This document shows positions 16,740 through 35,696 of a stretch of 64,000 nucleotides of DNA, piece by piece. Source of the stretch: a bacterium (GTDB taxonomy: Bacteria > Pseudomonadota > Alphaproteobacteria > Rhizobiales > JAKIUO01); assembly GCA_024228495.1 (NCBI GenBank), contig JAAETJ010000576.1, positions 1,658-65,657 of the forward strand, read 5' to 3'. Within the stretch, counting starts at the first letter, position 1, and each line of letters opens with the position of its first letter. Under the pieces are notes generated by a model. That model saw only the letters and a program-made list of their open reading frames with translations, had not been told where the DNA came from and searched no databases. The position numbers and the translations under genes are program-made.

Positions 16740-17957
16740 ATGCAGAATAAGCTTACCCCTCTTGAAGAGGTCCTCGACCTGTTGGAACAAAGTGCAAAGC
16801 CGCTGGATGATCGCGAAACGGTCGCGCTGGGCGAGGCCAGTGGCCGCATCCTTGCGCAAGATCTCATATCGCCATTCGATGTGCCAGCATTTGATAATAG
16901 CCGCATGGATGGTTATGCGGTGCGCGCAGATGAGTGCACCACTCCCTTGCTGATCTCGCAGGTGATCGCTGCTGGTCATCCGGCAACTCCTTTGGAACAA
17001 GGCACCGCCGCGCGTATTTTTACCGGTGCTCTCTTGCCAGCTGGTGCTGATAGCGTGGTGATGCAGGAAAATACTCAAACGGACGGCAAGACTGTCACCT
17101 TCAACAAGGCCGTCGAAGCCAATCAGTTTATCGGGCGAACAGGAGAAGACATTGCCAAAGGGCAGATCGTTCTGCAGGCCGGACACAGATTGCAGCCGCA
17201 AGATGTGGGACTGGCGGCCTCTATGGGGGTCGCTACCTTGTCAGTGATCAGGCGTCCGCGCGTCGCAATGTTCTCAACGGGCGATGAGTTGAAAGAACCT
17301 GGCGAATCGCTGGAAACGGGTCAAATTTATAACTCAAATCGCTATCAACTTAGTGCGCTGATAAAGGGATCAGGTTGCGAATTGATGGATTTTGGTATTG
17401 TTGCCGATGATCTTGAGCAAACGCAAGCAAAGCTCGCCGAGGCCGCGCAAGATGCCGATATGGTGATTACCAGCGGCGGCGTGTCGGTTGGTGAAAAAGA
17501 CTATCTGCGAGACGCGCTCGACAAGATCGGCAAGCTCAATCTTTGGTGCATTAATATCAAGCCCGGCAAGCCTTTGGTATTTGGGCACTTGAACGCCGCG
17601 AGCGCGAAGCAAACCCCCTATATGGGACTTCCCGGCAATCCGGTTTCTGTTTTCGTAACCTATTTGATGTTGGCGCAACCTTTCTTGTTTAAGCTGGCCG
17701 GAGCCAATATCTCAAGACCGCAAAGTTTTAGGGTCGTTGCCGGGTTTGATCAGTCTCGTGCTCAGTCACGGCGGCAATTTCTGCGATGTCGTCTGGAAGT
17801 TCAAGATGGACAACTCACCGCAGTTCCCTTCGACAATCAATCCTCTTCCATTTTGAGTTCTACCAGCAGCTCAAACGGTCTTGGAGTTGTTATGGAGGAG
17901 CGTACGCTTGCAAGAGGAGATTTGATCGATTTTTACCCCTATCAAGGATTGCTCTAG
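16740..17957 (+). CDS. moeA: Molybdopterin molybdo/tungsto-transferase MoeA, paralogue 2
   Basis: ORF 16737..17957; ATG at 16740. Motifs NSRMDGYAV, MFSTGDEL, TSGGVSVGEKDY, GLPGNPVSVF. Confidence 0.88.
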   Translation: MQNKLTPLEEVLDLLEQSAKPLDDRETVALGEASGRILAQDLISPFDVPAFDNSRMDGYAVRADECTTPLLISQVIAAGHPATPLEQGTAARIFTGALLPAGADSVVMQENTQTDGKTVTFNKAVEANQFIGRTGEDIAKGQIVLQAGHRLQPQDVGLAASMGVATLSVIRRPRVAMFSTGDELKEPGESLETGQIYNSNRYQLSALIKGSGCELMDFGIVADDLEQTQAKLAEAAQDADMVITSGGVSVGEKDYLRDALDKIGKLNLWCINIKPGKPLVFGHLNAASAKQTPYMGLPGNPVSVFVTYLMLAQPFLFKLAGANISRPQSFRVVAGFDQSRAQSRRQFLRCRLEVQDGQLTAVPFDNQSSSILSSTSSSNGLGVVMEERTLARGDLIDFYPYQGLL

Positions 17958-17959
17958 GT

Positions 17960-18229
17960 GTTCGTAGCCAGGGTCAGGACCTATTACCCCAGGGGCGAGA
18001 AAAAGCATGAACGACAGGTGGCCGCGGATCTGATATTCGGTCCGTCATCCAGGAGATTATAGATCTGCTGCAAGACGAGTACCTTGAACATCAACACCTC
18101 GTCCCAGGGGGGCGACCGCCATTGGATTTGCGCTGCTTTTTGTTTTGATCGAAGCCGGGCGGCTGGCGCAACAAGCGTGTTCGTGCCTACTCGGCATCCG
18201 AAAAGCTGAACAACAGGGGAAAGTCTCAA
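17960..18229 (-). mobile_element. IS5-family (DUF772-type N-terminus) transposase remnant, frameshifted and truncated
   Basis: The - strand reads ...PPWDEVLMFKVLVLQQIYNLLDD. After a frame change it continues TEYQIRGHLSFMLFLAPGV..., which matches the conserved GRPP..MFK.L.LQ..YNLSD...EYQIRDRLSF..FL N-terminal block. It abuts the moeA stop and no DDE domain follows. Confidence 0.6.
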
Positions 18230-18245
18230 TAAGTGGGCTGACGGC

Positions 18246-18776
18246 TCAATCTTGGATGACTAAGTCAGCTACACATCGCAATTTTCTATATTCGATGAAA
18301 TGGTAAAGTCCTTTTACAAGTAGAAGGATGCCAGCAACCATTGCCCCATAGAAAATAGCATACTCGCTACCCCCATCCTTGTATGCTGCCTTAAGGTAGT
18401 CGTCCAGCGTCAAGGCAATACCGGCAAGCAGAATCAAACTTCCTAAAGCTGTTTGGACGATTGCACGTCGCCTTATCGAGGCAAGTTCAGCCTCGCTGGA
18501 AGCCTCCTGTGACTGTTGCACAAAGATATTGATCTGCTTGAACGCCTTTGGCCATGCAGCAAATTTCCAAATATTTTCCCCTGCTGTGATTGCTACGTTA
18601 TGGCCACTCCTGGCAAATCTGATAAGCTCGAACTGCGAGAAGGCCTCTTCTGGTGTGAATGATGCGGCAACCTGGCTATCTGGCATCAAGAGCAGCGCAG
18701 ATTGACCTTCCAACTTTATTTGCCATTTTTCACCGTGATATTCCTTGTCTACCCGCGTCAGCGCAAGTGTAGTCAT
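18246..18776 (-). CDS. Hypothetical membrane protein (soluble N-domain plus 2 predicted TM helices)
   Basis: 176-aa ORF between the two IS wrecks. Hydrophobic segments ALGSLILLAGIALTL and AIFYGAMVAGILLLV. I recognise no family. Confidence 0.4.
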   Translation of the reverse strand: MTTLALTRVDKEYHGEKWQIKLEGQSALLLMPDSQVAASFTPEEAFSQFELIRFARSGHNVAITAGENIWKFAAWPKAFKQINIFVQQSQEASSEAELASIRRRAIVQTALGSLILLAGIALTLDDYLKAAYKDGGSEYAIFYGAMVAGILLLVKGLYHFIEYRKLRCVADLVIQD

Positions 18777-18931
18777 AAATCATCCTCGTCTTATTTGAGT
18801 TAAGCACGGCACGCACAAGCTTGTTTTCGATTAAGCTCGAATACTATCAGCAGTTTATCGATACACGATAAATCTCTTAAATCCAACGAAGAATGAAGGG
18901 AGTACTATCACGTCTTAACCACCCTCTTTAA

Positions 18932-19303
18932 CAGCATTACATTCCCAACGAGGATAAATGCCTATCCAAAATTACAATCAACCCAGCGATTTACATTTTT
19001 CTCGACAATGGCCGTTATCACCACGCCAAGGTGGTGAAAAAATGGATAAAATCAACAAATAGTCGCATAAAGCTGATGTTTCTACCGGCCTGCGCGCCAC
19101 ATCTTAATCGGATCGAACGATTATAGGGTGTAATGAATAAATATATCACCCACAACGAATTCTATGAACAATTTAGCGATTTTGCAGATGCCATTCTTGA
19201 ATGTTTGAACAAAACCATATCCGAAAAATGGCGCAACTTTCGTGATCGCGTCATTGATAATTTCCGCGTAAACCTGCACAATAGTTTTCGGGTTTTGAAG
19301 TAG
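18932..19303 (+). mobile_element. IS630-family transposase C-terminal remnant with an in-frame stop
   Basis: Translation gives ...IYIFLDNGRYHHAKVVKKWI...IKLMFLPACAPHLNRIERL*GVMNKYITHNEFY...FRDRVIDNFRV. This is the DDE-motif region (DNxxxH, P.LN.IE..W) with TAG at 19124-19126 in place of Trp. The N-terminal two thirds are missing. Confidence 0.7.
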
Positions 19304-19556
19304 GGTGGGTATATTTCCAGATATGTTGTGATACCGTGTAAAGACGGCCTAACTTATGTCCGGCCTAGACGGGCTTAACAACGGTCAAAGTATGTTGTTT
19401 GGGATGGACTAGGATAATGAATATTGTTCTACCGGTAAGACTAAATCTTATCGTTTCATTCCAAAGGATGAGTTATCATTCTCTATGCTATCAATAGTAA
19501 TTTCACACTATAACTATTGAATAGTATGAAGAGTTGGAATAATTAAGGAGAAAAGC

Positions 19557-20234
19557 GTGAATTTAAAATCTGTTGGAGGGTTCATGCAGCCAATTGGATT
19601 TTCGCAGATGGGAAAGTTTACTGTAACTGTTCTTTTTTCCGTTCTGTTGGCAGGGGCTACATTCAGTTTCGTTTCAATGGCTGTAGCCGATAAAACGCTG
19701 CCAAACCCTTTCGCCAACAAGAAAATGTTGACGCGCCTTGCTTCCGGCCAGGTGCGCAATTTTAAATATCCAGATAAACCTCTACCACCACTCGTCGTTA
19801 GTTTTTTTGACGAGATGGGGAATAAACACAAGCTGGCAGAATGGCGCGGCAAAACGGTGCTAGTGAATTTCTGGGCGCCGTGGTGTGAAAGCTGCAAGCG
19901 CGAGTTGCCGTCACTTAATAGATTGCGACATCGTTTCAAAAAACAGGAATTTGATATTGTCATTATCAATATCGAAGAAAATGTCAAAAAAAACAGAGCC
20001 TATCTCGACAAGCTGAAAATAAAGAATATTTCCTCCATGCTGGACAAGGATAACGCTGCTCTCAAGACATTCAGCGCAATTGGTATTCCAACGAGCATTT
20101 TGGTTGATTGCCATGGCCGCGAACTTGGCCGGCTGAAGGGGAGCGCGGTCTGGGATTCAGATTCCGCCATTCTGTTGACCAAAGGTATGATGCGTGCAGC
20201 GGGCTGTTATGATGAAGAGCGCGAGATATTATGA
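19557..20234 (+). CDS. TlpA/ResA-family periplasmic thiol:disulfide oxidoreductase
   Basis: 225 aa with a GTG start 7 nt after AAGGAG. N-terminal membrane anchor/signal and thioredoxin motif FWAPWCESCKRELP. Confidence 0.8.
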   Translation: MNLKSVGGFMQPIGFSQMGKFTVTVLFSVLLAGATFSFVSMAVADKTLPNPFANKKMLTRLASGQVRNFKYPDKPLPPLVVSFFDEMGNKHKLAEWRGKTVLVNFWAPWCESCKRELPSLNRLRHRFKKQEFDIVIINIEENVKKNRAYLDKLKIKNISSMLDKDNAALKTFSAIGIPTSILVDCHGRELGRLKGSAVWDSDSAILLTKGMMRAAGCYDEEREIL

Positions 20235-20995
20235 GTGACGATCTGTCCAGGAGTTTTGGTTGCAAAGAGGTTTCTGTTGAAGAACGCCGCAGGCGGATAC
20301 GCCTTGTTTTTGACAATGTCGCTCGTCGCTATGACCTGATGAACGACTTTATGAGTTTTGGCGTCCATCGGTTGTGGAAGAAATCGCTTGTACGGCTGAC
20401 GCAGCGCTATCCGGGAGACCAGATTGTTGATCTTGCCGGGGGAACGGGTGATATTGCACGGCTTCTTGCAAAGAAGCGTGCGAGTCGTACCACGGTTGTG
20501 GATGCCAGCCTGGAGATGATGCTTGTCGGCCGGAAGAGCACAGACCATCTGATTGATTGGGTGTGCGCGGAAGGGGAAGCCCTGCCGATTGGTAGCAACA
20601 GTCTTGATCTCGTAACAGTGTCTTTTGGATTGCGGAATATGACATCTCCGACGAAAGCCCTTGTTGAAGTGTTACGTTGCCTCAAACCGAGCGGTGGATT
20701 TGTCTGCCTGGAGTTTTCTCGTCCGCAGTCCTGGTTCCGACCTTTCTATGATCTCTATTCCTTTATTGTCATACCTCGTCTGGGTTCCATGATCGCTGGA
20801 GAGCCACGCGCCTACCAATATTTGATCGAGAGTATTCGCCGTTTTCCAGAACAACGGGATCTCGAAAGATTAATGACCAACGCCGGTTTTGAGAATGTAG
20901 GATATCGTAATTTAATGTTTGGCGTGGCCTGTTTGCATTGGGGAGAAAAAGGTATGGAGCAAGAAGAGAGTGCAAGAAGTGAGATGCTTAATTGA
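20231..20995 (+). CDS. ubiE: Demethylmenaquinone/ubiquinone C-methyltransferase (UbiE/MenG family)
   Basis: 254 aa. FDNVARRYDLMNDFMSFGVHRLWK and SAM motif VDLAGGTGD. 4-nt overlaps with both tlpA-like and menA. Confidence 0.85.
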   Translation: MSDDLSRSFGCKEVSVEERRRRIRLVFDNVARRYDLMNDFMSFGVHRLWKKSLVRLTQRYPGDQIVDLAGGTGDIARLLAKKRASRTTVVDASLEMMLVGRKSTDHLIDWVCAEGEALPIGSNSLDLVTVSFGLRNMTSPTKALVEVLRCLKPSGGFVCLEFSRPQSWFRPFYDLYSFIVIPRLGSMIAGEPRAYQYLIESIRRFPEQRDLERLMTNAGFENVGYRNLMFGVACLHWGEKGMEQEESARSEMLN

Positions 20996-21984
20996 TGTCA
21001 TTTGTACTATTACGCACTGACCTGAAACTCTGGTTTATGGCCATTCGACCTTTAACACTTCCGTTGTCGGCTACTCCAGTACTCGTTGGAACCACGCTGG
21101 CTATCGCGGTTAGTGAAGTGCTCAACTGGTTTGTTTTACTAGCAAGTCTGGTCGCGGCGATCTCGATTCAGGTTGGCACAAATCTGTTAAACGATGCAGA
21201 AGATTATGAACGCGGTAATGACACACCCGAGCGGCGCGGGCCGCCGCGCGTCACAGCAAAAGGCTGGGCATCTTCAGAAGAAGTACACGAGGCTGCCACC
21301 ATTGCATTTTTCATCGCAGCTATTGCCGGACTCTATCTCATCAGCATCGGAGGCTGGCCGATTTTTTGGCTTGGGTTGCTTTCTATCATGGCCGGCATTT
21401 CCTATTCGTCAGGGCCGGTTCCAATCTCTCACACCCCGTTGGGAGAGATTTTCGTGTTCTTTTTTTTTGGAATAGTCGCTGTTGCCGGGACTTTCTATTT
21501 GCAAACCGGTTTTGTCTCGTCAGAAGCGCTATTTTCTGGCATGGCGATGGGGAGTTTCGCGGCAGCTGTTCTCTATACCAATAATGCCCGTGACTTGAAG
21601 GAAGACCGCGTGGCCGGCCGGCGGACACTCGCCATGTTCAGCAATGATTATTTTTTTGGTAAACGCGGAGAAGTAAAAGCAAATCGCAGGAATTTGGTCA
21701 GCACAGCGATCTATACGCTGTTTCTACTAGCACCATTCGGTTTTCTGGGAAGGCAGGTTCAACTTCTAGAGACAAATATCAAAACTTTTCAGGAAGTTTC
21801 CGGGCTACAGCCGACCTCTCCTTCAGCTTTTTGGCTGTCGTTATTCTGTCTGCCTGGCGCCTTATATGCCATATACGCTTTTTTTAACGCTGAAACCGGA
21901 GGACAGTATAACCGCCTTCTGGTCATGACGATTGGTTTGCAACTTCTGTTTGCGACTTTGACCTGCATCGGAATACTGATTTAA
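20992..21984 (+). CDS. menA: 1,4-dihydroxy-2-naphthoate polyprenyltransferase (UbiA superfamily, MenA-like)
   Basis: 330 aa polytopic protein. NLLNDAEDYERGND (NxxxD-type prenyl-PP motif) and second motif YTNNARDLKEDRVAGRRTLA. Confidence 0.75.
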   Translation: MMSFVLLRTDLKLWFMAIRPLTLPLSATPVLVGTTLAIAVSEVLNWFVLLASLVAAISIQVGTNLLNDAEDYERGNDTPERRGPPRVTAKGWASSEEVHEAATIAFFIAAIAGLYLISIGGWPIFWLGLLSIMAGISYSSGPVPISHTPLGEIFVFFFFGIVAVAGTFYLQTGFVSSEALFSGMAMGSFAAAVLYTNNARDLKEDRVAGRRTLAMFSNDYFFGKRGEVKANRRNLVSTAIYTLFLLAPFGFLGRQVQLLETNIKTFQEVSGLQPTSPSAFWLSLFCLPGALYAIYAFFNAETGGQYNRLLVMTIGLQLLFATLTCIGILI

Positions 21985-22000
21985 ACAGGATGGACGGGTT

Positions 22001-22897
22001 ATGGAAAGCGCAAATATCGACATATTATTAGTGTTATCCAAACTTCTTTCCAGACTACTTCCTCTGGGTCTGGCTTTTATTATGTTTTCGCTCGGACTAA
22101 CTCTAAGAATAGCGGATTTTGCGCGCGTTTTCGTCAATCCCCGCGGTATTCTTATTGGCCTTTTTCTGCAGATAGTTATATTACCCTTGGCTGCTTTCAG
22201 CTTGCTACAAAGCTGGTCAGTGAGTTCGGTATTGGCTGTCGGCATCATGATTCTCGCCGGGGCTCCCGGCGGCATTACCTCAAATCTGCTTACGCAACTG
22301 GCGCGAGGGGATACCGCTCTTTCCGTTATGCTGACTGCAATTAGCTCACTCGCAGGAATGGTGACCGTCCCGTTTATTGTCGGTTTTTCCATAAGCTATT
22401 TCATGCCGGAAAAACTGGTCACTGATCTGCCGGTCTCTAACTTGATAATCGGTGTGTTTTTGGTCTCTACTTTACCGGTCATGATAGGGCTCACCATAAA
22501 TCAGATCTGGCCTCAAAGGGCCAGGCAAATTTCTCATACTGCCAAACCATTATCGACTGGTATTTTTCTGCTCATTGTTCTGGGCGCTTTTATATCTTCG
22601 TGGCAGGTCATGATGGAGAATATATCGGTTATTGGCCCCTTTATGCTGCTCTTGAATGCTCTTATCATGATAGCGGGGTGGCTGATGGCGCTCGGGGGCG
22701 GCCTTTCCAGGCCGTCAGCGACAGCCATCGCTCTTGAAGGTGGGCTTCAGAACGGCGCGCTCGGAATTTTTGTCGCTCTCACCCTATTGCGGGATGAGAC
22801 CATGATGATCCCTAGCATCACCTATGCCCTCATCATGAATATAACGGCGGCCGTGATGATTTTCTGGCGGTTTAAAAAGGCCTCGCACCGGCTCTAA
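22001..22897 (+). CDS. Bile acid:sodium symporter (BASS/SBF) family transporter
   Basis: 298 aa with about 9-10 TM segments. SBF-like stretches LAFIMFSLGLTL and LAGAPGGITSNLLT. Confidence 0.7.
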   Translation: MESANIDILLVLSKLLSRLLPLGLAFIMFSLGLTLRIADFARVFVNPRGILIGLFLQIVILPLAAFSLLQSWSVSSVLAVGIMILAGAPGGITSNLLTQLARGDTALSVMLTAISSLAGMVTVPFIVGFSISYFMPEKLVTDLPVSNLIIGVFLVSTLPVMIGLTINQIWPQRARQISHTAKPLSTGIFLLIVLGAFISSWQVMMENISVIGPFMLLLNALIMIAGWLMALGGGLSRPSATAIALEGGLQNGALGIFVALTLLRDETMMIPSITYALIMNITAAVMIFWRFKKASHRL

Positions 22898-23790
22898 GGT
22901 AAGTCACCGCGCCGAAATATCAAATAGCCAAGCGTGCCCAGTACTAATCCCAGAAGGGCAGGATAAAATAGCGCCCAAGCGAGATAGCCAGCATATCCAA
23001 GATTGTCTAGGATAATATAAGCCGATGGCCCCAGCATGATTAGCTGGGGATCGAAGATCATCATGGCACCGGCACGAAAAGCTTGCAACGGATTGAGCAG
23101 CGCGATTATCACGACAAGGCCGGTTGGAGCCTGTTCCTGAATCATCAATCCAAGCAGGATCAGGTCAAGGAACAAGAGCAGTAAAAGCCAGATGAAGAAC
23201 GCGGCTCCTTGAGCAATGTCCGTTGCTCTGGTCATCGAAGAGATTAAAAAGCCGATACCAAGGAAACAGATGGCCAGTGAAACAAGCATGCCGGTGTAAA
23301 GTGCAAATTCACGCCATGGCAGATCGGCCCCTTTCAGAACCCCGTAAAGGGAGCCAAGAAGCATTGCTGCGAAAACCGGAATAAATACCACCGCAAAGCG
23401 GCCGATAAAGCGTCCCCAATACCATGCTTTCAGAGAGACTGGCAGGGAGAGCATATATTCAAATACACCCGCTTCACGGTCGCCAGCCAGAGATCGTACA
23501 GTTGTAATCAGAACGAAGATCGGCAAAATGGCCATGGAAAGCTGGATATAGGTCACGAGCATGCGTGATAGGCCCGTAAAACCCATGATACGGCTGTCAG
23601 CAAGACCAAATATAAACAGTGAAGTAATGATGCCGCCAAACACCAGAGAATAGAGCAGGAACCATTTGGCGCGCAGGGATTCGGCAACATCCAGACGTGC
23701 AGTTAGCAACAGGTCATTGGCGGAGAGCCCGGTTTCATCTGCTTGACGCTGTGAACCTTTAAAATCTAATCGCATCGTATTCATGTCCAA
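22894..23790 (-). CDS. nosY: ABC-2 type permease NosY
   Basis: 298 aa polytopic membrane protein at the end of the nosD-G-H-F-L-Y string. Confidence 0.75.
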   Translation of the reverse strand: MDMNTMRLDFKGSQRQADETGLSANDLLLTARLDVAESLRAKWFLLYSLVFGGIITSLFIFGLADSRIMGFTGLSRMLVTYIQLSMAILPIFVLITTVRSLAGDREAGVFEYMLSLPVSLKAWYWGRFIGRFAVVFIPVFAAMLLGSLYGVLKGADLPWREFALYTGMLVSLAICFLGIGFLISSMTRATDIAQGAAFFIWLLLLLFLDLILLGLMIQEQAPTGLVVIIALLNPLQAFRAGAMMIFDPQLIMLGPSAYIILDNLGYAGYLAWALFYPALLGLVLGTLGYLIFRRGDLP

Positions 23791-23817
23791 AAACTCGTTC
23801 TATTGATCGTTAAAGCC

Positions 23818-24291
23818 CTAGGAGGACCGCTGTTCGGCTGGAAGGCAGTGATAGGTCGATCCGCGTTGTCTTACTTTTTTTACCATTTCTTCAAAACTGA
23901 CCGAACCCTTGCGATTGTCTTCGACTGCCCCAAATCCATAATTCATCGGGGTTGTTTGGTTGGGCATGTAGCGCACTTTGCGGGCGTCAAGCCACTTTGA
24001 ACCAGTATCCATATCCATTACCCACAGTTCGACCTTTGGATCATTTTTCCAGGTTTGGACGTCGAGCCAATGGACAAGTTCTCCCATGTCATCAAATTTG
24101 TATGCCTTGTGCTTTGGCCCCCCCCGTAATTGTGCTGCGTAATGTCGATCCGAAATCAACATGCGGCAAACTTCACAGGTATCTCTGTCCCATTTGATTT
24201 CAACAGGACCTGTTTCAGGGTCTCCAAAACAACCCGCTGTCAACAAGGGCAGCGCAATTACAAATACAATTCTGGCCAACAGCTTGTTCAT
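23818..24291 (-). CDS. nosL: Copper-chaperone lipoprotein NosL
   Basis: 157 aa. Lipobox LLTAGC, then DRDTCEVCRMLISDRHYAAQL, typical of NosL. ATGA overlap with the nosF stop. Confidence 0.8.
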   Translation of the reverse strand: MNKLLARIVFVIALPLLTAGCFGDPETGPVEIKWDRDTCEVCRMLISDRHYAAQLRGGPKHKAYKFDDMGELVHWLDVQTWKNDPKVELWVMDMDTGSKWLDARKVRYMPNQTTPMNYGFGAVEDNRKGSVSFEEMVKKVRQRGSTYHCLPAEQRSS

Positions 24292-25163
24292 TGACGTTTC
24301 CCTTTTTGCACTTCCTGGACGGCTTCTATTTGCACTGAGGCTAATACTCCAGCATAGCGGGACAGCGTACCCAGAAAGCGTAGTCGGTCAGGGGCTGCGA
24401 CTTCCCCCTTCCATTGAAGTTCTGTTGCGTCGCTGGTGAAGTTCCATTCCCCGATTGCTTTGGCAAAGGCATCATTGGGGCGGGTTAAAACCAGCGTGGA
24501 TTTCTGCAATGCAGCTCCATCTACCATGTCACTTACACGGTCATCCAGAACAATACGTCCGCGGTCCATCTCTATCACTCTGTTAACGAGGCTTGAAACT
24601 TCCTCAAGTCGATGAGATGAAATGAGGATAGGTCTGTCAATGCGCTCCGACAATAGCTCAAACAGGATTTGCCGGGCCGTCGGATCAAGATTGGCAGTCG
24701 GCTCATCCAGAATAAGGAGTTTTGTTTCACGGCCAAGAGCAATGGCAACAAGTATCTTTTGTTTTTGTCCGCCAGATAGTCTGTTGAATGGCTTGGTCTT
24801 GACCTCGGAATAGTCAAGTCCCATGCGTTCAGTCAGCTCAATCATATGGTCCGGGCTGGCATTGCAAACACCGGCAGAAAAATGAATGAGCTCGAATACT
24901 GGCATTTTCAGAGGCGGTGGAAGTTGTGGTACAAAACCGATATCAGAGAGTACCTTGGTTCGCTCATGGCGCGGCGAAATACCGTCGATTTCAGCAAGCC
25001 CTTCGTGAACATATTGCCCCATGAGACATCTTATCAGTGTGGTTTTCCCAGCCCCGTTGGAGCCAATCAGGGCGACCCGGTCGTCACTGGCGATGTCAAG
25101 CGAGAGGTTGTCGAGGACCGTGTGGGCACGAAAGGTTTTGCTGATGTTAGACAGGCGGATCAT
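24288..25163 (-). CDS. nosF: ABC ATPase NosF
   Basis: ORF 24288..25214. Start moved to the ATG at 25163 (MIRLSNISKTF), which overlaps the nosH stop as ATGA. Walker A GSNGAGKTT, signature LSGGQKQK, Walker B LLILDEPT. Confidence 0.85.
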   Translation of the reverse strand: MIRLSNISKTFRAHTVLDNLSLDIASDDRVALIGSNGAGKTTLIRCLMGQYVHEGLAEIDGISPRHERTKVLSDIGFVPQLPPPLKMPVFELIHFSAGVCNASPDHMIELTERMGLDYSEVKTKPFNRLSGGQKQKILVAIALGRETKLLILDEPTANLDPTARQILFELLSERIDRPILISSHRLEEVSSLVNRVIEMDRGRIVLDDRVSDMVDGAALQKSTLVLTRPNDAFAKAIGEWNFTSDATELQWKGEVAAPDRLRFLGTLSRYAGVLASVQIEAVQEVQKGKRQ

Positions 25164-26137
25164 ATGAGGTCCCCGGTTCCACGGATTTTGAAATTCAATG
25201 CGCCTGTTGGGCAAACCTCAAGACACATTGCACAGCGTGTGCAGTCCGCGCCGATGTCGATTATCTCGTCATGTGCACGGTTTTTCTTTGTCATCTCCAG
25301 TACATGCGGCACCATGCAGACATTGCGGCATTCTCCCTCGTGCAGACAATGATTGAGATCATAGCGAATGACTACCGGTGAGATACTACCAACAAAGCCA
25401 TATGTCAGGCCGATCGGGCAGATATATCGGCACCAGAAGCGTCTTGAATAAAAGATTTCGATGAGCAGCAATACCGCAACCAAAACCAATCCGAACCCGG
25501 CACCATAGATCAATGACCGGCTCAAAATACCAACTGGATTGACGGTTTCAAATACAGTGTAGCCTGTGATGAAGGCGAGGGCTGCAAATACTACCCACAT
25601 GACGGTTCTGGTAGATCGACGCATCGGGTGATCTTTCACGATACCCTTGTCAACGAGCTTGATATGCAGCATTTCAGCAATTTCTGCCAGCAGATGATAG
25701 GGACATACCCAGGAACAAAAGGAACGACCGCCAACGAACCACCAGATCAGGAGCACTGTAACGACGCCAATAACAAGATTGATCAAAATAACTTTGTAGG
25801 CTAGCACCACTTGCAGGGCGGAATTCAAATCGGCCAGATGAAAGCCGACAAAGCGCGATGCAGTTAGCGCTCCCTCGACAAGCTGAACATCAAACCAATA
25901 GGACAATACGAATATCATGTTGACGATGATAATCGAGGCCCAACGCTGGATGCGCCAGCGATAATTTTTGACCTTGTTGCCCAGTTCTTCGTGAATAGAG
26001 GCAATACGGAGTTTACGCTGTTCGGGGGTTTGTTTGAAAGTGTGAATATCCCGGGCAGCCTGAGAGTGGTCGTCCTTACTCCACTTTTGAGGGGCACTAC
26101 CAAGCATGGTGCGTAATTCGTCGATAAAAAACTTCAT
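25160..26137 (-). CDS. nosH: NapH-like membrane-bound iron-sulfur protein NosH (putative quinol dehydrogenase subunit)
   Basis: ORF 25160..26161. Start at 26137 (MKFFIDEL) overlaps the nosG stop as ATGA. About 4 TM segments, CSWVCP and CRYICP motifs, and C-terminal ferredoxin motifs CLHEGECRNVC and CTRCAMCLEVCP. Confidence 0.75.
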   Translation of the reverse strand: MKFFIDELRTMLGSAPQKWSKDDHSQAARDIHTFKQTPEQRKLRIASIHEELGNKVKNYRWRIQRWASIIIVNMIFVLSYWFDVQLVEGALTASRFVGFHLADLNSALQVVLAYKVILINLVIGVVTVLLIWWFVGGRSFCSWVCPYHLLAEIAEMLHIKLVDKGIVKDHPMRRSTRTVMWVVFAALAFITGYTVFETVNPVGILSRSLIYGAGFGLVLVAVLLLIEIFYSRRFWCRYICPIGLTYGFVGSISPVVIRYDLNHCLHEGECRNVCMVPHVLEMTKKNRAHDEIIDIGADCTRCAMCLEVCPTGALNFKIRGTGDLI

Positions 26138-26955
26138 GCCTGCTTTCCTTTCTGGTCCCATTTTTTGCGTTCATCTATGATGATTGCAGCGGGTTCCACC
26201 GGGCAAATCATTTCGCACATACCGCACCCAACGCAGGCTTCATGAACAACGGGTTTACGCCGTTTGTCATCGGGCTTATCGCTCACTGGTTGCAGACTAA
26301 TGGCGTCTTTGATCGGGCATTCGCGTACACACAAATCACACAGTGGGAGATCATATTTATGATCGCTGATTTTGATGGGATTCCATCGATCAACCTTGAC
26401 GTAGCGATGCAGTCCATTGAATTTGGCCCCGCGCGCGATGCCTTTAAATCCTTTGCCCTGGTGAGCCAGGCATAGATCGGGTTTGTCGAGGCGAGCAAGT
26501 CCCATACGAGTCTGCTCTTTTTTGTCGAGGTCATGAGACAAGGCGCCGGTGGGGCAGGCGAGAACACACTGCACCACATCGCAAGAAAAATCACAGGCTT
26601 GTTTGCGGGCGTCAAGATAGGGGACACCAATGCCAAACCCTTCTCTGATATCAGCGAGTTTGATGGCTTCTACCGGGCATACCTGTACGCACTGCCCGCA
26701 TTTAATACATGATGCTAGAAACTCCTGCTCGTCGAGAGCACCGGGGGGGCGCAAGCGGAGTTCTTTGGCGTTCATGATCGGCACATAGCCAAGCAGTGAA
26801 ACGCCAATGGTAGCTCCCCCCGCCAGGAAGGATAGCAAAAGAGCGCGTCGTTCCCGCTCCTTGCGTGTGGGCAATCGATGGCGTGGTGGTTGGTTGGTTA
26901 CGGGTTTGTTCCTGGTGGAATTGTTGTCTGTTGTCGTCATGTCATTTGACCGCAT
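26134..26955 (-). CDS. nosG: NapG-like Tat-exported poly-ferredoxin NosG
   Basis: 273 aa. Tat-like RERRALLLSFLAGGATIG. FeS motifs CIKCGQCVQVCP, CVLACP, CDLCVRECP, CVGCGMCEMICP. An alternative start at 26940 lies 1 nt after the nosD stop. Confidence 0.75.
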   Translation of the reverse strand: MRSNDMTTTDNNSTRNKPVTNQPPRHRLPTRKERERRALLLSFLAGGATIGVSLLGYVPIMNAKELRLRPPGALDEQEFLASCIKCGQCVQVCPVEAIKLADIREGFGIGVPYLDARKQACDFSCDVVQCVLACPTGALSHDLDKKEQTRMGLARLDKPDLCLAHQGKGFKGIARGAKFNGLHRYVKVDRWNPIKISDHKYDLPLCDLCVRECPIKDAISLQPVSDKPDDKRRKPVVHEACVGCGMCEMICPVEPAAIIIDERKKWDQKGKQA

Positions 26956-28384
26956 CGATATTGAACGGGTCCAGGCGTTTCATGCTGGTCCCGGATTTAG
27001 TGTTGGCATTTGTAGCTCCCCCAAAGGTCTTTAATGTCTGCCCCGCATTGCCATTTGATTTGTCACTAGCAGCGTTGGTGAACGGTTTAAAGATTCTCGA
27101 AACTCGAGGTTTTTTATCTTCGAGCATCAACAAAGGTGTTGTGAACGGTGCAAGGCGTTCCAAGAAATCGAGCATGGAAAGCACGGGTGCACCTCTGAAA
27201 AAAGCAGCCGGTTTTACATCCATCCAGAGGCGGTCAGCATAGACTTTTGGGCGGTAGGGGGAGTCGCCGATCTTGTTATCATCGCCATCAAACCCCTGAT
27301 AGTCATCCCAGTAGTTGCCTTCCCAGATATTGTGAGTTGCGCCCGCGAATGAGCTAACCGAGACATGATGGCTATTGCTGGAGAAAATATTGTCTTTAAA
27401 ATGGTTGCCAGGCCAATCATTAAGAAACGCGACGCCTAAATCGTTGTAGGCAATCTTGTTGCGGTAAATACGATTTGTCGTGTCGGGCTGGAACGGCGAC
27501 AGGTCAAGATAAAGACCTGTGCTGTTATATAATATATCATTGTCGTGAATATCGCAGTTACTGGCTTCCTTGAAACCGATACCAACGCCTGCAGCACCAA
27601 GTGCCTGAACGACCCTGTTGCCACGGATAACCACACTGTCAGAATACATCAAAAAGATGCCGACAGCATTTTTATAGAAGCTGTTGTTTTCGACGAGATT
27701 ATATTTCGAATACATGAAATGCAGGCCGTAACGACCGCCAGCAACATCATTGTTGGCGATGACGTTGTCGGCGGAATACCATACCACTATGTCACGAGAA
27801 TTACGGATCTTGTTTTTTTCGATCCGGTTGTTTCGCGAATACCATAGGCGTATGGCGTCGCCTCTGATGCCAAGCGTAGCATCGCTTTTCGACGAGATCA
27901 TATTGTTCCGAATAACGTTATTACTTGACTGCTGCAGATCTATGCCGAACAGGCTTTCGGTAATCGTGTTATTTTTAATGACATTGAAGTCACCGCGCAC
28001 CTGAATACCAGCGTCAATATCATTGTGTTGTGCACCGGTATTTGTGAGATACAGATTCTTGAGCACGGCACCGTTGGTTTTTAGGTAGATCACTGAGCCT
28101 TTGCCACCTGCATCAATAGAAACCTTGTTCTGTCCATCCAGGGTGATGGCTTTGTTGATGGTCACTGGGCCTTGGTAGATGCCTGGAGGAGGGGTGAGAA
28201 TATCCCCTTGTTTGGAGCGGTCAATAAGTGTTTGCAGGTTTTTCAACCTTGAGGCTGCATAGGCTTTTTGTGGGTTGTTTCCGGTCAATAGATATGAACC
28301 GCAAGTGATTGCACCAATTGCCAAAAGGCTATAGACGGCCACAGGAAATCGGTGATTTGCGGTAATTTTTATCAGACTGATCAC
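26942..28384 (-). CDS. nosD: Periplasmic parallel-beta-helix copper-cluster maturation protein NosD
   Basis: 480 aa with an N-terminal signal/anchor. Repetitive ...N.I..N.. beta-helix repeats (IKNNTITESLFGIDL, VIRNNMISS, IEKNKIRNS, VIANNDVAGG, VENNSFYKN). Confidence 0.85.
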   Translation of the reverse strand: MISLIKITANHRFPVAVYSLLAIGAITCGSYLLTGNNPQKAYAASRLKNLQTLIDRSKQGDILTPPPGIYQGPVTINKAITLDGQNKVSIDAGGKGSVIYLKTNGAVLKNLYLTNTGAQHNDIDAGIQVRGDFNVIKNNTITESLFGIDLQQSSNNVIRNNMISSKSDATLGIRGDAIRLWYSRNNRIEKNKIRNSRDIVVWYSADNVIANNDVAGGRYGLHFMYSKYNLVENNSFYKNAVGIFLMYSDSVVIRGNRVVQALGAAGVGIGFKEASNCDIHDNDILYNSTGLYLDLSPFQPDTTNRIYRNKIAYNDLGVAFLNDWPGNHFKDNIFSSNSHHVSVSSFAGATHNIWEGNYWDDYQGFDGDDNKIGDSPYRPKVYADRLWMDVKPAAFFRGAPVLSMLDFLERLAPFTTPLLMLEDKKPRVSRIFKPFTNAASDKSNGNAGQTLKTFGGATNANTKSGTSMKRLDPFNIDAVK

Positions 28385-28442
28385 AATTTATTTCCTTCCC
28401 AAATAAACCGTTTATCCTCCCGCAACGGCCTCTACAAAAACA

Positions 28443-29741
28443 CTAAGAGTTAATCTCGCTCAGGTGTTTGCGCCGGACAAGGGCCGCAAAAGTCAGCAGG
28501 GCCGCCATCAACATCATCAGCGCAAAGCCGATTTCTGGATAGGAGTGGGTTTTGAATTGCGCCACTTTTCCCTGGCCAAATACTGTTGGCATGAAGGGCT
28601 TAAGGGTAAAGGCTCCCATCTCGTTGAGTGTGTGTCCATACCACCAGAGCCATGCAGAATATTCAATGAGGAAGAACAGTGGCAGTCCGATCGGTACAAG
28701 AATAAGCAACCAGTGTAACAAGCTGTTATCACGCCCTGCAAAAACCAGAAATACCATGCCGAGTATGATGATCCCGAATAGAGTATCGCCTGCCAGTTTT
28801 ATGGTCGCTACCATTGGTAGATTGACCTCGGGATTGTTAAACCAGCGACCAAGTGCTTTTTCGTAATGCCAAGCCATAACCTGGCGACCGGTTCCAGTCC
28901 ACTCTACACCTTCGCCTTTGTTCTTTTGTGCCTGACCCGCATCATAAACGCCTTTTAGAACCTCGATATTCCGTTCTTTACCGCTTTTCCGGCTGTTTTC
29001 TGCCTCGGCGAGGATCTGCTTGAGAGTTTTCGATTTACCGGTTTGGCTACCGCTCCCTTCGTCGAGACGGGCAATAATATCCGACAGGCGTTTTTGGCCG
29101 CTCTTTTTCAATGACTTTTGAAAGTCGGTTTTACTAGCATTGGCGCCAATCCCACTTTCTAGCAAGGATTCTTGTAATTTTTCGATGATCGGGCTAATGG
29201 CTTCCCCTTCTTCCTCATGGCCTTGCCCTAGCGAGGTAACCATAGCGTTGAGATAGCCACCGGTCTGATATTTGATACCCCCCTTACCGTAGTAGGTAAG
29301 ATACATGAACAAAGCAATGACCGCGAAGCCCACGGCCATGAAAATCATACGTTTTTTGGGATCAAACAGATTAAAACCGATGAGCATTACGACCATCAGG
29401 CCGAACATGAATGGACCGAACATCTTTTCGACCACACCTCCGCTCGCAATCGGAAACATGCCGACAAAATGATTGATAGCATCCATCTCATGCACACAGT
29501 CGAGGGCTTTTTCTTCTTCGATCTCGGCTTTGTTCAACAGTTTGCAACCGTTGAAAACGCCATTGATGTGGAAGTTAATCTTGACACCATCGGGAAAGCT
29601 TTCGGCCGGGTAATTGGGGGCGGTCAACGACACCCACCAGATTGGCGAATAGAAGATTGCAATGAGCAGCAGCACGGATATCGCTGACAGAACATGAACG
29701 ACCATACTGCGTTTTTGTTGTTGTTGTTCGCTATCAGCCAT
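28443..29741 (-). CDS. nosB: Polytopic membrane protein, NosB-like by position in a clade II nos cluster
   Basis: 432 aa with about 6 TM helices. A hydrophilic insert of roughly 130 aa lies in the middle (GHEEEGEAISPIIEKLQ...KNKGEGVEW). It sits between the cytochromes and nosD. The identity is inferred from context only. Confidence 0.5.
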   Translation of the reverse strand: MADSEQQQQKRSMVVHVLSAISVLLLIAIFYSPIWWVSLTAPNYPAESFPDGVKINFHINGVFNGCKLLNKAEIEEEKALDCVHEMDAINHFVGMFPIASGGVVEKMFGPFMFGLMVVMLIGFNLFDPKKRMIFMAVGFAVIALFMYLTYYGKGGIKYQTGGYLNAMVTSLGQGHEEEGEAISPIIEKLQESLLESGIGANASKTDFQKSLKKSGQKRLSDIIARLDEGSGSQTGKSKTLKQILAEAENSRKSGKERNIEVLKGVYDAGQAQKNKGEGVEWTGTGRQVMAWHYEKALGRWFNNPEVNLPMVATIKLAGDTLFGIIILGMVFLVFAGRDNSLLHWLLILVPIGLPLFFLIEYSAWLWWYGHTLNEMGAFTLKPFMPTVFGQGKVAQFKTHSYPEIGFALMMLMAALLTFAALVRRKHLSEINS

Positions 29742-29859
29742 TGCAGCTTCATGCTCCTCGAAAAGGTCAAAGGAAACTGACCTACTGTTATAAATTCAGA
29801 TAAAGTGTGCTGGTTGTAACCAGACCACGCGAGGTCCGGTTACAACTCAAAATCGGGGA

Positions 29860-30621
29860 TCAATCATAATCTGGATTGAGCCAGTCCTTGCTTTTTGCAA
29901 CCTTGTCAGATGCTGGTTTCATGCGCGAAACATAGTCTACGACAGCTTTCATGTCCTTTTCGGTAAAGCCATTGATCTGTTTGATCATGTCAGGATTTGC
30001 ATTGCGGCGTTTTCCATCACGGATCCATTCGAACTGACGCAGCAAATATTTGTAGTGCTGTCCTTGAATGAGCGGGAAGAATTTAGTCTTGTGTCCTTCA
30101 CCATTTTCGCCGTGGCATTTGACACAGTTATCTTTGTAGAGCTTTGCACCATGCTCAAGGTCCGTACCGGCACCAACGCCGGGGTCCGGGTTCATCGGAA
30201 TATTTTCAATATATCGAGCGACAGCAGCGATGGCATATGGTCCACCACCTACTTCAGGAGCAGCGTTTTTGATCTCCTTTGGTAGCGCAAAGGGGTACAT
30301 TGTCGGGTTATCGCGGTTTTTGGCGCGAATATCTGCGAGCTGCTTGATGATCACTGTTGCAGGCTGTCCGGAAATTTGCGGGAACGTACCATCTTTCGAT
30401 CCCCATCCTTCAGTAAGGTGACAGGCCGAACAGATCTCGTAGACGGCGATACCGTCTTTTCTGATTTTGGCGAGTTCTTCAGGAGTTTTTTTCTTGAAGG
30501 TTTCGTAGATTTTGGTGGCCTCATCCTTTTCTCCACCTCCTTCATTCCAGGCCATAACTGGTGCGGAGGCTAAAATGCCGGCAGCAAGTGCACCTCCAAG
30601 GATCAGTTTTAATTTTGTCAT
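29860..30621 (-). CDS. Periplasmic dihaem c-type cytochrome (cytochrome c4-like)
   Basis: 253 aa with a signal peptide ending VMA. Two CxxCH motifs: CSACH and CVKCH. Confidence 0.85.
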   Translation of the reverse strand: MTKLKLILGGALAAGILASAPVMAWNEGGGEKDEATKIYETFKKKTPEELAKIRKDGIAVYEICSACHLTEGWGSKDGTFPQISGQPATVIIKQLADIRAKNRDNPTMYPFALPKEIKNAAPEVGGGPYAIAAVARYIENIPMNPDPGVGAGTDLEHGAKLYKDNCVKCHGENGEGHKTKFFPLIQGQHYKYLLRQFEWIRDGKRRNANPDMIKQINGFTEKDMKAVVDYVSRMKPASDKVAKSKDWLNPDYD

Positions 30622-30655
30622 GGTTTTTCCTTCTCAATGACATGTTTTCTAAAGA

Positions 30656-31519
30656 CTACTTTTTGCTCCGGTCGATCTGCGAAAGATATTCGGCAATCAT
30701 CGCAATCTGCTCATTCGACAGCTTTTTGACGAAGGGCAGCATGAGTTTACTTTTCCCATTGGATCTTGCTTTGTCCCTGATATCAACTAATTGCATGAAG
30801 ATATATTCGCGCTTTTGACCAGCAATAAATGGATATCCCTTGAGCGGTTTTCTACCTTCTTTACCGTGGCAGGAGACACACTTTTTGAATAGCTTTTTAC
30901 CTGTCGCAATGTTTTCGGCAGGGTAGGGTGTTTCCGGTATTTTGGGTTTGGCTGGCGGAAGATCCTTCAACCAGCTAGCCAACTGTACGATATCATCATT
31001 CGTAATACGAAACGCGCCTTCCGGATTGACAAGGGCGCCGCGCATCGATTCAGTACGATGATGGCCAGTATCAGCGTCGATGCCGCCTTTACGCTTGCCG
31101 GACATAATGTCCTTTATCTGGGCAATCATGTATTTTTTGTCTTGTCCAGCTATGGCTGGATAATAGGAAATGGCGCGCTGCCCCTTGCGCCCATGACAGG
31201 CCGCACAGGCTCCTTTACGCAAATAAATCTTGCGACCGGGGTGGCGCTTCTTTTTCTTTGGCTTGGCAGCGGCAACTGGTGTAGTTGCCTGTGTTGGGGT
31301 ATTCGCTACTGCCGGTACCGGTTTAGCTACTTCAACAGGCTGAGAAGCTTGTTTTGACGGAGCAGCAGCCATTTTGTCACCGGTATTATTAGCTTGTATT
31401 ATTTCCGATGATCCGGTTGGGTCATATGCGACATCAACGAGTACGCTAATGGCGTAAATCCCCAGAATGGAAATAATCAGCGCGATAGCAAACTGACCGG
31501 CAAACCTAAAGAAATGCAT
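30656..31519 (-). CDS. Membrane-anchored dihaem c-type cytochrome with a Pro/Ala/Lys-rich linker
   Basis: 287 aa. N-terminal TM helix FAIALIISILGIYAISVLV, linker ...PVEVAKPVPAVANTPTQATTPVAAAKPKKKK, and two CxxCH motifs (CAACH, CVSCH). Confidence 0.85.
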   Translation of the reverse strand: MHFFRFAGQFAIALIISILGIYAISVLVDVAYDPTGSSEIIQANNTGDKMAAAPSKQASQPVEVAKPVPAVANTPTQATTPVAAAKPKKKKRHPGRKIYLRKGACAACHGRKGQRAISYYPAIAGQDKKYMIAQIKDIMSGKRKGGIDADTGHHRTESMRGALVNPEGAFRITNDDIVQLASWLKDLPPAKPKIPETPYPAENIATGKKLFKKCVSCHGKEGRKPLKGYPFIAGQKREYIFMQLVDIRDKARSNGKSKLMLPFVKKLSNEQIAMIAEYLSQIDRSKK

Positions 31520-31593
31520 AAATTTTTCCTCACTAAAACTGATCAGGCAGATAGATAATTGTCGCCAAATACAGTTTTCCCTATTCCCGATTC

Positions 31594-31645
31594 AAAGAGG
31601 CAGGGCCAACGCTCCTGGAGTTGGTTTGGCCCTGCCTCTTTTTTT
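31594..31645. terminator. Strong symmetric hairpin (A-run / stem / T-run) between nosZ and the downstream nos genes
   Basis: AAAGAGGCAGGGCCAA (31594-31609) pairs with TTGGCCCTGCCTCTTT (31626-31641), and the T-run continues to 31645. It lies 28 nt after the nosZ stop on the - strand. Confidence 0.6.
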
Positions 31646-31672
31646 GATCTGGATCAATAGCAATAAATCAGG

Positions 31673-33967: not shown

Positions 33968-34090
33968 TACGGTTTCCCAGTTGAGTTAAAGAGGCCAGTA
34001 TTGACCGAACCCGTTGGATAGCTTTCCCGTCAGATGGTGATAGAGTAAACAATCCAACTTTAAGATTTTCACGGAAGAGCGGCAGCGAAA

Positions 34091-34124
34091 TTGATAAATG
34101 TCAATATTTTTTAATGAATGTCAA
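34091..34124. promoter_or_regulatory. Two tandem FNR/Dnr/NnrR-type boxes in the nosZ / cytochrome c divergent promoter region
   Basis: TTGAT-AAAT-GTCAA (34091-34104, 9/10 to TTGAT-N4-ATCAA) and TTAAT-GAAT-GTCAA (34111-34124, 8/10). Their centres are 20 bp apart. The first box centre is about 130 nt upstream of the nosZ ATG. Confidence 0.55.
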
Positions 34125-34879: not shown

Positions 34880-35023
34880 GCGCAAATTAGCCCCTTTGGT
34901 CGTTGGGGTGATAGCTCTTTTTTCTGTGGTTAATCATTTGACGCGGTTGCCCTGATACAGGGAAATTGTAAAAAACCTGCGTCACGTAGCGACCTGCGTC
35001 ACTGCTCGTTCAAGGGGCGTCAT

Positions 35024-35266
35024 ATGCAAAATGTTGATTTGCATGGGGCGGATCTCTCCAATGTGAAATTTGAAAATGCGCGAATGAGTGGTTGTGATCT
35101 ATCCGGGGTGTTGCTTGTCGGTGCAAATTTCAAATGGGCGGCACTGCCCAAATGCAATATGCGTCGTACAGACCTGCGTGGTGCTGACTTTGTTCATGCC
35201 AATCTCGATGAAGTTGATTTGACAGGTTCAGATATGCGCAAGGCCTTCTTATTCGTACTTCTTTGA
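35024..35266 (+). CDS. Pentapeptide-repeat protein, 5' part of a probably frameshifted gene
   Basis: 80 aa of A(D/N)LXX-type repeats (ADLSN VKFEN ARMSG CDLSG ... VDLTG SDMRK) that end abruptly. Confidence 0.55.
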   Translation: MQNVDLHGADLSNVKFENARMSGCDLSGVLLVGANFKWAALPKCNMRRTDLRGADFVHANLDEVDLTGSDMRKAFLFVLL

Positions 35267-35556: not shown

Positions 35557-35696
35557 CTTGAACACACGGTAAATATTTAAAAATGAAAACCCGGCATCCT
35601 TTTAGCAAGTAGTTTGCACAACCTGCGATATTTTCTCAACAAGGGAGAACAGGAATGCCGGGCTACGTTGGGAAAACGTAATTATGTTTGTTGGGA

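Follow-up and report, generated by a model that had tools for sequence, protein, structure and literature searches.

Organization of the menA cassette

The 64,000-nucleotide stretch analyzed here (contig JAAETJ010000576.1 of assembly GCA_024228495.1; hereafter the window) carries four intact, closely packed open reading frames (ORFs) on its forward strand at positions 19557–22897. These encode a TlpA-like thioredoxin, a second UbiE/MenG-type methyltransferase, the prenyltransferase MenA and a transporter of the BASS family. We confirm the earlier observation, made in an initial annotation of the window, that this four-gene set (the cassette) abuts a nos gene cluster for nitrous oxide (N2O) reduction. 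The first gene (19557–20234) encodes a periplasmic TlpA-like thiol:disulfide oxidoreductase of 225 residues, with a WCESC active site, a signal or anchor at the N terminus and two additional conserved cysteines. It is followed by ubiE2 (20231–20995), which encodes a UbiE/MenG-type C-methyltransferase of 254 residues, by menA (20992–21984), whose product is a MenA-type 1,4-dihydroxy-2-naphthoate (DHNA) polyprenyltransferase of 329–330 residues, and by the gene for a BASS (SBF) family transporter of 298 residues (22001–22897), which we propose to be an importer of the naphthoate head group.

The tlpA-like gene and ubiE2 overlap by four nucleotides (ATGA). The initial annotation had assigned an overlap of the same length to ubiE2 and menA, which holds only if menA starts at the TTG at 20992; with the likely start, the ATG at 20995 that also begins the 329-residue database copy of MenA, the overlap is a single nucleotide (TGATG). 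A 16-nucleotide gap separates menA from the BASS gene, whose stop codon (TAA, 22895–22897) does overlap that of nosY on the minus strand (22894–22896), as had been described, with the two genes lying stop-to-stop. The four cassette genes probably form one operon. The sequence AAGGAG is found 7 nucleotides 5′ of the GTG start of the tlpA-like gene. A scan of the region 18.7–23.9 kb returned seven promoter-like sites, compared to a mean of 6.9 in shuffled sequence and hence no excess, and 13 terminator-like sites, compared to a shuffled mean of 5.5 (standard deviation 2.6). With one exception, the latter are within coding sequence, and no clear operon end can be recognized from them. The FNR-like box that precedes the cassette in the window has two mismatches, lies 26 nucleotides from the start of the tlpA-like gene, and is unconvincing as a sign of co-regulation.

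The prenyltransferase and the second methyltransferase

MenA scores 156.1 bits against TIGR00751 (cut-off 102.15) and 227 bits against the narrower model NF004751, below its cut-off of 264. Both aspartate-rich motifs are present (NLLNDAEDYERGND and NNARDLKEDRVAGRRT). Residues Asn64, Asn67, Asp68, Asp71, Asp77, Asn197, Asn198, Asp201 and Asp205 are invariant across 24 homologues, all columns invariant in that alignment are kept in the window protein, and the C-terminal helices are conserved. An AlphaFold model (predicted local distance difference test score, pLDDT, 88.9; predicted TM-score 0.88) has the all-helical fold of UbiA-type enzymes, with UBIAD1 (8DJK, TM 0.76 by target) as the best match, followed by archaeal UbiA-type enzymes. 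Sequence and model thus support a prenyltransferase of the MenA/UBIAD1 kind, for which DHNA is the predicted acceptor, and the original assignment of this protein to MenA, rather than to another UbiA clade, has held.

An insert in MenA had likewise been noticed earlier, and alignment with 23 homologues resolves it into two separate insertions. The first, of ∼15 residues, directly follows the second aspartate-rich motif and is common to the nine nearest homologues, while the second, the 12-residue segment IKTFQEVSGLQP, is unique to the window protein. The model confidence dips only at these insertions (pLDDT of 74 and 71), which fall in loops or helix extensions, the second lengthening a helix. 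The two insertions, along with Pfam and NCBIfam matches that stop near residue 215–249, would fit a MenA-like enzyme that acts on another acceptor and, together with the methyltransferase, yields a specialized prenylated cofactor in place of bulk menaquinone; they would also fit a cassette in decay that is carried as a passenger. UBIAD1, which is the MenA homologue of animals and the closest solved relative, uses menadione rather than DHNA; more diverged MenA-like paralogues occur in other nos clusters, and insertion sequence (IS) remnants lie upstream of the cassette. However, all four ORFs are intact, the invariant columns and C-terminal helices of MenA are retained, the structure model is confident, and the MenA of a complete men operon, from a Lamellibrachia tubeworm endosymbiont, is 42% identical to the window protein and belongs to the same protein family tree. 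MenA shows no sign of decay, and we consider both a different cofactor and a passenger very unlikely.

UbiE2 scores 253.2 bits against TIGR01934 (cut-off 158.35) and 234 bits against PF01209, and contains the S-adenosylmethionine (SAM) motif VDLAGGTGD. It falls below the cut-off of the bifunctional UbiE equivalog model (252 versus 351), which is passed by the housekeeping UbiE of the same genome at 404; the two proteins are 45% identical. A third, partial UbiE-like gene on a small contig (C1165, locus L008, 893 bp, 52% guanine plus cytosine), with 156 bits against PF01209 and 39% identity to UbiE2, could be contamination or a further paralogue. MenA and UbiE2 resemble the classical late menaquinone enzymes of Escherichia coli (MenA and UbiE/MenG) in both enzyme families, in the aspartate-rich motifs and in the SAM motif. 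They differ from them in being encoded by a genome without menFDHBCE, in UbiE2 being a second paralogue, in the two loop insertions of MenA, and in the chaining of their genes to those for a thioredoxin-like protein and a transporter.

Quinone pathways of the host genome

The assembly (5.1 Mb in 1255 contigs, with a median of 1.3 kb) is 99.4% complete by marker genes and 4.5% contaminated. Same-genus genomes measure 2.7–3.8 Mb, and part of the small-contig fraction may be foreign. The window contig is anchored by flanks that are 76–87% identical to congeners. The PurB protein encoded on this contig shares 88% identity with a protein of a Hyphomicrobiaceae metagenome-assembled genome (MAG) and ∼80% identity with those of Kaistia, Rhodobium and Nitratireductor; these values place the host, an uncultured soil or water bacterium, in the Hyphomicrobiales.

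The genome has the gene set of a ubiquinone-type alphaproteobacterium, with the housekeeping ubiE directly upstream of ubiB (contig C134), a proteobacterial UbiA encoded elsewhere, and two haem O synthases. This agrees with the initial annotation, which had placed the housekeeping ubiE of such an organism apart from menA and had advised a search for a second copy; the copy adjoining ubiB is the one that was found. MenA itself is present once. In profile searches of the genome, no MenB scored above the cut-off and MqnA/MqnD (PF02621) were absent. Searches by tblastn with MenF, MenD, MenH, MenB, MenC and MenE of the tubeworm endosymbiont returned nothing for MenD and MenH, the rest being generic crotonase, TrpE/PabB-like, enolase-superfamily and acyl-CoA ligase paralogues of 23–31% identity, and the classical men route was rejected. 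The futalosine route was also rejected, as PF02621 is absent from this genome and from all 80 MenA-bearing genomes described below; a single 27.8-bit match to PF02621 in one genome (G005) is regarded as noise.

The genome thus encodes the two final steps of menaquinone synthesis and nothing for making the head group, a combination characteristic of DHNA salvage. The initial annotation had named the lack of any DHNA pathway as an outcome that would speak against its menaquinone proposal. No such pathway was found, and we read its lack as pointing to salvage, not to a refutation of menaquinone use. The related suggestion, that the island brings or depends on its own quinone, stands in its tie to nos and is to be corrected in its extent, since only the last two steps and a transporter are brought, rather than the whole pathway.

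Salvage of DHNA with the late steps only is known from Streptococcus agalactiae and from lactic acid bacteria. Growth of Porphyromonas gingivalis is reportedly stimulated by DHNA. The window genome is similar to such quinone auxotrophs in the presence of MenA, the absence of the head-group pathway, and a predicted dependence on DHNA from neighbors. It differs in belonging to a ubiquinone-making proteobacterium, in the proposed dedicated BASS transporter, and in the tie to the clade II N2O reductase (Nos).

The BASS transporter and head-group synthesis across genomes

The transporter scores 116 bits against Pfam SBF (gathering score 24.3) and is the only BASS protein in the genome at E<1e-10. 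It can be aligned with ASBT_NM (3ZUX) over 279 residues and keeps the GG.(T/A)SN and E.G.QN motifs, which we take to be the sodium ligands of ASBT_NM. The fold family and the residues aligning with these sodium-site motifs are shared with bacterial BASS proteins of the ASBT_NM/PanS type. In contrast, the cassette protein is below the cut-offs of TIGR00841 (171.5 versus 326.3) and of the PanS model, and its context suggests a naphthoate as the substrate, rather than a bile acid or pantoate. We know of no dedicated DHNA importer that has been described.

A scan based on the MenA alignment, with one genome per species, yielded 80 loci from Alpha-, Beta- and Gammaproteobacteria, whose neighboring genes were identified by tblastn with the window proteins. 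MenB is encoded in 35 of these 80 MenA-bearing genomes and Mqn in none, such that 45 are without both. A BASS gene adjoins menA at 22 loci, all of them (22/22) in MenB-less genomes and none in the 35 MenB-positive ones; the raw Fisher p of 2.7e-7 ignores kinship, and we do not lean on it because only two to four pairs are informative. Both states are found within the Rhodospirillales (Phaeospirillum-type versus Magnetospirillum-type) and within betaproteobacterial clades. Five MenB-less genomes without an adjacent BASS gene each encode a BASS protein of 36–47% identity elsewhere; among five MenB-positive genomes, three have no BASS protein and two have only relatives of 30–33% identity. The MenB-less carriers include the isolates Paramagnetospirillum kuznetsovii, P. 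caucaseum, Terasakiella sp. PR1 and Azospirillum sp. TSO22-1, as well as a closed Sedimenticolaceae chromosome, so that gaps in the assemblies are not in themselves a sufficient explanation of the pattern. That the transporter might import a naphthoate precursor, as first proposed in the initial annotation, gains support from its position beside menA exclusively in MenB-less genomes.

The 45 genomes without MenB and Mqn, with isolates and a closed chromosome among them, would also be expected if an unrecognized pathway made the naphthoate or another aromatic head group, the transporter then carrying a precursor acid or exporting a product. Some carriers respire N2O in pure culture, and the substrates of BASS proteins are diverse, 8OYF/8OYG among the related structures presumably being a pantoate complex. 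Such a pathway is nevertheless quite unlikely in our view, since the cassette has no additional gene conserved alongside it and since BASS orthologues occur where MenB is missing, whether beside menA or elsewhere in the genome.

Association with clade II nos clusters

The three nearest MenA homologues (54–62% identity, all metagenomic) are each found in a tlpA-ubiE-menA-BASS set with the same four-nucleotide tlpA/ubiE overlap. In one case (L019), a nos cluster 70–87% identical to that of the window ends in nosY and is followed, after 59 nucleotides and in the same orientation, by the set. No nos gene is present within the fetched flanks of the other two (L018 and L020); FNR/Dnr-type boxes are located 5′ of their tlpA genes (TTGATAATTATCAA at −191 and TTGATTATTGTCAA at −119). 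Downstream of BASS, gene content differs from one close relative to the next. A search of the relatives for additional conserved genes, as candidates for a new head-group pathway, found none beside the cassette, and this possibility was rejected.

Clade II nos genes lie within 10 kb of menA at 32 of the 80 loci, and clade II NosZ is encoded in 49 of the 80 genomes. The usual layout consists of nosZ…nosD-G-H-F-L-Y, followed by ubiE, menA and BASS; in the Paramagnetospirillum (Magnetospirillum) and Terasakiella types, ubiE begins at the end of nosY. Five Hyphomicrobiales MAGs make up the MenA clade closest to the window protein (support of 98 in the Shimodaira–Hasegawa-like approximate likelihood-ratio test), and their ubiE-menA-BASS genes are divergent from nosZ. 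The Lamellibrachia endosymbiont (L068, 5402–15291) has a complete menF-D-H-B-A-C…E operon beside clade II nos, and MenB is encoded inside four further nos-linked loci (L062, L069, L073 and L079).

Two even samples of genomes were also compared, one of 400 alphaproteobacterial species and one of 399 species of Gammaproteobacteria (in the GTDB sense, including the former Betaproteobacteria). The tests of enrichment are raw and ignore relatedness. In the gammaproteobacterial sample, MenA is above the cut-off in 14 of the 21 genomes with clade II NosZ (NosZ-II genomes) and in 20 of the 378 without it (raw Fisher p 5e-12). With a threshold of E≤1e-15, these numbers become 19 of 21 and 51 of 378. 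MenA and NosZ-II are encoded on one contig, 1.4–34 kb apart, in seven of the sampled NosZ-II genomes (eight when the center genome, G031, is included). In the alphaproteobacterial sample, five genomes have MenA at E≤1e-25 and a single one of the 400, besides the window genome, has clade II NosZ. That genome (G211) encodes a MenA-like protein of 30% identity, below the cut-offs, near nos and beyond nosY and a cytochrome gene (L101, 4195–5716). The tie between menA and clade II nos that was put forward in the initial annotation thus recurs strongly across the Proteobacteria.

Some nos-linked loci show additional features. In G211, the MenA-like gene is followed by a RatA/Coq10-like START gene, with an FGE/PvdO-like gene and a 690-residue methyltransferase-containing gene upstream. 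Clusters of the Rhodocyclales type contain a second MenA-like gene (27% identical) and a thioredoxin-like gene before ubiE-menA-BASS (L051, 7642–8755; L074, 8129–8743). A second NosD-like gene (37–44% identity) is located after BASS at L029, L034, L039, L051, L054, L074, L084, L093 and L096.

The inserted block

Comparison with same-genus genomes by blastn and tblastn defined the borders of the region in which the cassette resides. Congener homology stops at 17956–17958 (the moeA2 stop) and resumes at 36490 (the purB stop), and the variable 18.5-kb block in between (17958–36489) contains IS remnants and a divergent cytochrome c gene in addition to the cassette and the clade II nos genes. The window MenA is absent from five same-genus species representatives. 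The moeA2–purB interval is 4.6 kb long and without nos in two congeners (G481, L113; G483, L114), while a third (G485, L112) has a clade I nos cluster, with a NosZ of 32% identity and no MenA, in an interval of 14 kb. A fourth congener has a clade II nosZ of 88% identity on a contig that ends after the cytochromes. These comparisons support a true insertion relative to the congeners, with the cassette and nos within one insert. One chromosomal slot accommodates a clade I cluster without menaquinone genes and a clade II cluster with them.

An alternative is that the cassette supplies menaquinone to anaerobic respiratory chains at large (formate dehydrogenase and nitrate reductase, among others) and simply travels with nos as part of mobile “anaerobic” DNA, NosGH using ubiquinol. 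Two of the close cassettes are not beside nos, a general anaerobic regulon fits the FNR-type box equally well, and a tungsten/molybdenum formate dehydrogenase region is located just upstream within the window. That region, including moeA, is however kept in congeners without the cassette, whereas the cassette shares its insert with nos. Additionally, MenA is lacking in the congener whose slot is occupied by clade I nos, several lineages have ubiE directly adjoining nosY, and MenA is 13-fold enriched in NosZ-II genomes. A general respiratory role is therefore unlikely, in our estimation.

Within the genus, the moeA2–purB interval is a variable “nos slot”. A search for integration-site repeats at the block borders gave only short repeats at chance level. 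IS debris occupies 17958–19556, upstream of the cassette, and includes the C-terminal remnant of an IS630-type transposase (18940–19300, plus strand), which is readable around 19060–19130. An orphan ORF of 176 residues is located at 18246–18776.

The TlpA-like protein

The first protein of the cassette has a Redoxin/AhpC-TSA fold (Pfam Redoxin, 59 bits), and its CxxC motif and hydrophobic N-terminal segment ending in AVA are those of an exported thioredoxin-fold protein. The NCBIfam TlpA equivalog (NF047696) is its best model in that collection, with a score of 129.2 bits; as this is under the cut-off of 230 bits, we refer to the protein as TlpA-like only. Its closest sequence match in the PDB is Bradyrhizobium TlpA (1JFU, E 2.5e-25), which is the reductant of ScoI and of the CuA cysteines of CoxB. 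The two proteins share the fold, export and a CxxC active site. The cassette protein differs from Bradyrhizobium TlpA in missing the equivalog cut-off, in having CESC instead of CVPC, and in being an extra copy next to two other TlpA/CcmG-like genes in the genome. The additional cysteine pair is kept in four close copies, and the alignment with 1JFU gave no decision as to whether it corresponds to the second disulfide of TlpA.

Translational coupling of the tlpA-like gene to ubiE is seen in all four close copies, two of which are not beside nos. At other alpha- and betaproteobacterial loci, too, menA and nos are accompanied by thioredoxin-like genes, in varying order. By analogy with Bradyrhizobium, it is reasonable to infer that the exported protein keeps the CuA cysteines of the Sec-exported NosZ reduced; a role in the handling of cytochrome c or of a copper chaperone, with a copper- or haem-handling partner as its target, is equally open.

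Proposed role in N2O respiration

Our favored interpretation, held with moderate confidence, is that the four genes serve to salvage DHNA and to produce the menaquinone that feeds the clade II N2O reductase through NosGH/NosB. The BASS transporter would take up DHNA, or a close naphthoate, from neighboring menaquinone producers. MenA would then add a polyprenyl tail from the same polyprenyl diphosphate pool that supplies ubiquinone, and UbiE2 would methylate the resulting demethylmenaquinone. The NapGH-like NosGH/NosB entry module may then use the naphthoquinone formed as its quinol substrate or bind it as a cofactor. The cassette would have come with the clade II reductase as the 18.5-kb insertion. 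The observations on which this builds are the identities of the genes, the lack of DHNA synthesis, the recurrence of the cassette as a conserved unit, its association with clade II nos in both statistics and position, and the insertion itself; the transported substrate, the product, its use by NosGH and the TlpA target are what we infer from them.

Several points weigh against this interpretation. Thermodynamically, N2O reduction needs no low-potential quinone, and NapGH of E. coli uses ubiquinol. Cultured carriers such as magnetospirilla denitrify in pure culture, which leaves their source of the head group unexplained. In the window, the cassette is convergent to nos and not co-transcribed with it, its FNR-like box is weak, and it lies behind IS debris. 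The contrast between BASS and MenB comes down to two to four independent pairs on the MenA tree, all in the expected direction, for which a sign test cannot reach significance. Two of the 21 sampled gammaproteobacterial NosZ-II genomes are without a MenA-like gene, and thus dependence on MenA is not universal.

NosHG has been proposed to pass electrons from menaquinol to the N2O reductase in clade II (PMC13685413, a recent review citing Hein et al. 2017). The window cluster resembles the clade II Nos path of Wolinella succinogenes (NosGH, NosC1/C2, NosB) in that nosG, nosH, a nosB-like gene and genes for c-type cytochromes are clustered with a Sec-type nosZ. It differs in the ubiquinone pool of the host, in the menaquinone-finishing genes that accompany the cluster, and in NosZ, which has a C-terminal extension where the Wolinella enzyme has a haem c domain. 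Wolinella has menaquinones only and needs no extra quinone genes. No paper linking menA, ubiE or naphthoate with nos clusters was found in open-access full texts, and subscription reviews may differ in this respect.

These results suggest that N2O respiration of this kind runs on borrowed quinone. A broader proposal, which we put forward tentatively as a real possibility, is that clade II N2O respiration in ubiquinone-type Proteobacteria depends on a naphthoquinone, and that many of these bacteria, being unable to make its head group, scavenge DHNA from neighbors that produce menaquinone through a dedicated sodium-coupled BASS protein, which would be the first importer of this kind to be identified. 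The greenhouse gas N2O is considered to have important sinks in clade II NosZ bacteria, whose electron path outside Wolinella is poorly known. The genomic tie between NosGH-type clusters and menaquinone supply consists of a whole men operon in some lineages (some Gammaproteobacteria) and of only the last two steps and a transporter in many others, and it makes the quinone question directly testable, including in cultured carriers. If salvage is correct, N2O reduction would depend on community members that release DHNA, a cross-fed precursor of vitamin K. This would matter for culture media, for N2O mitigation in wastewater and soil, and for reading nosZ counts as activity, and it would assign a substrate to a bacterial BASS subfamily.

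The neighboring nos cluster

The nos genes of the window form a complete clade II cluster on the minus strand, downstream of the cassette. Adjacent to the cassette is nosY (22894–23790), an ABC-2 permease gene (Pfam ABC2_membrane_2) with 57–87% identity in related nos clusters. It is followed by a nosL-like gene (23818–24291), with a weak Pfam NosL match and a position that is conserved in related clusters, and by nosF (24288–25214), assigned as an ABC ATPase gene by Pfam ABC_tran and synteny. NosH (25160–26161), a NapH-type membrane iron–sulfur quinol dehydrogenase subunit, scores 238.7 bits against the NapH/MauN model TIGR02163, above the cut-off. NosG (26134–26955), a NapG-type periplasmic ferredoxin of the MauM/NapG family, scores 152.7 bits against NCBIfam NapG, below the cut-off, and NosD (26942–28384) scores 381.9 bits against TIGR04247, above the cut-off. 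The next gene (28443–29741) encodes a nosB-like membrane protein with no NCBIfam match, whose position between the cytochromes and nosD is common to the relatives, at 49–78% identity. Two genes for dihaem c-type cytochromes, identified by matches to dihaem cytochrome models, occupy 29860–31519.

The clade II (Sec-dependent) nosZ (31673–33967) encodes 764 residues and scores 866.6 bits against TIGR04246 (cut-off 625). The match ends at residue 644, which leaves a C-terminal extension of ∼120 residues. A pattern search located a perfect FNR-type palindrome, TTGATCTGGATCAA, with no mismatches between nosZ and the cytochrome genes (31644–31657). Upstream of nosZ, the same type of search located an FNR/Dnr-type box with one mismatch, TTGATAAATGTCAA (34091–34104), and Dnr-type boxes in this upstream region span 34091–34124.

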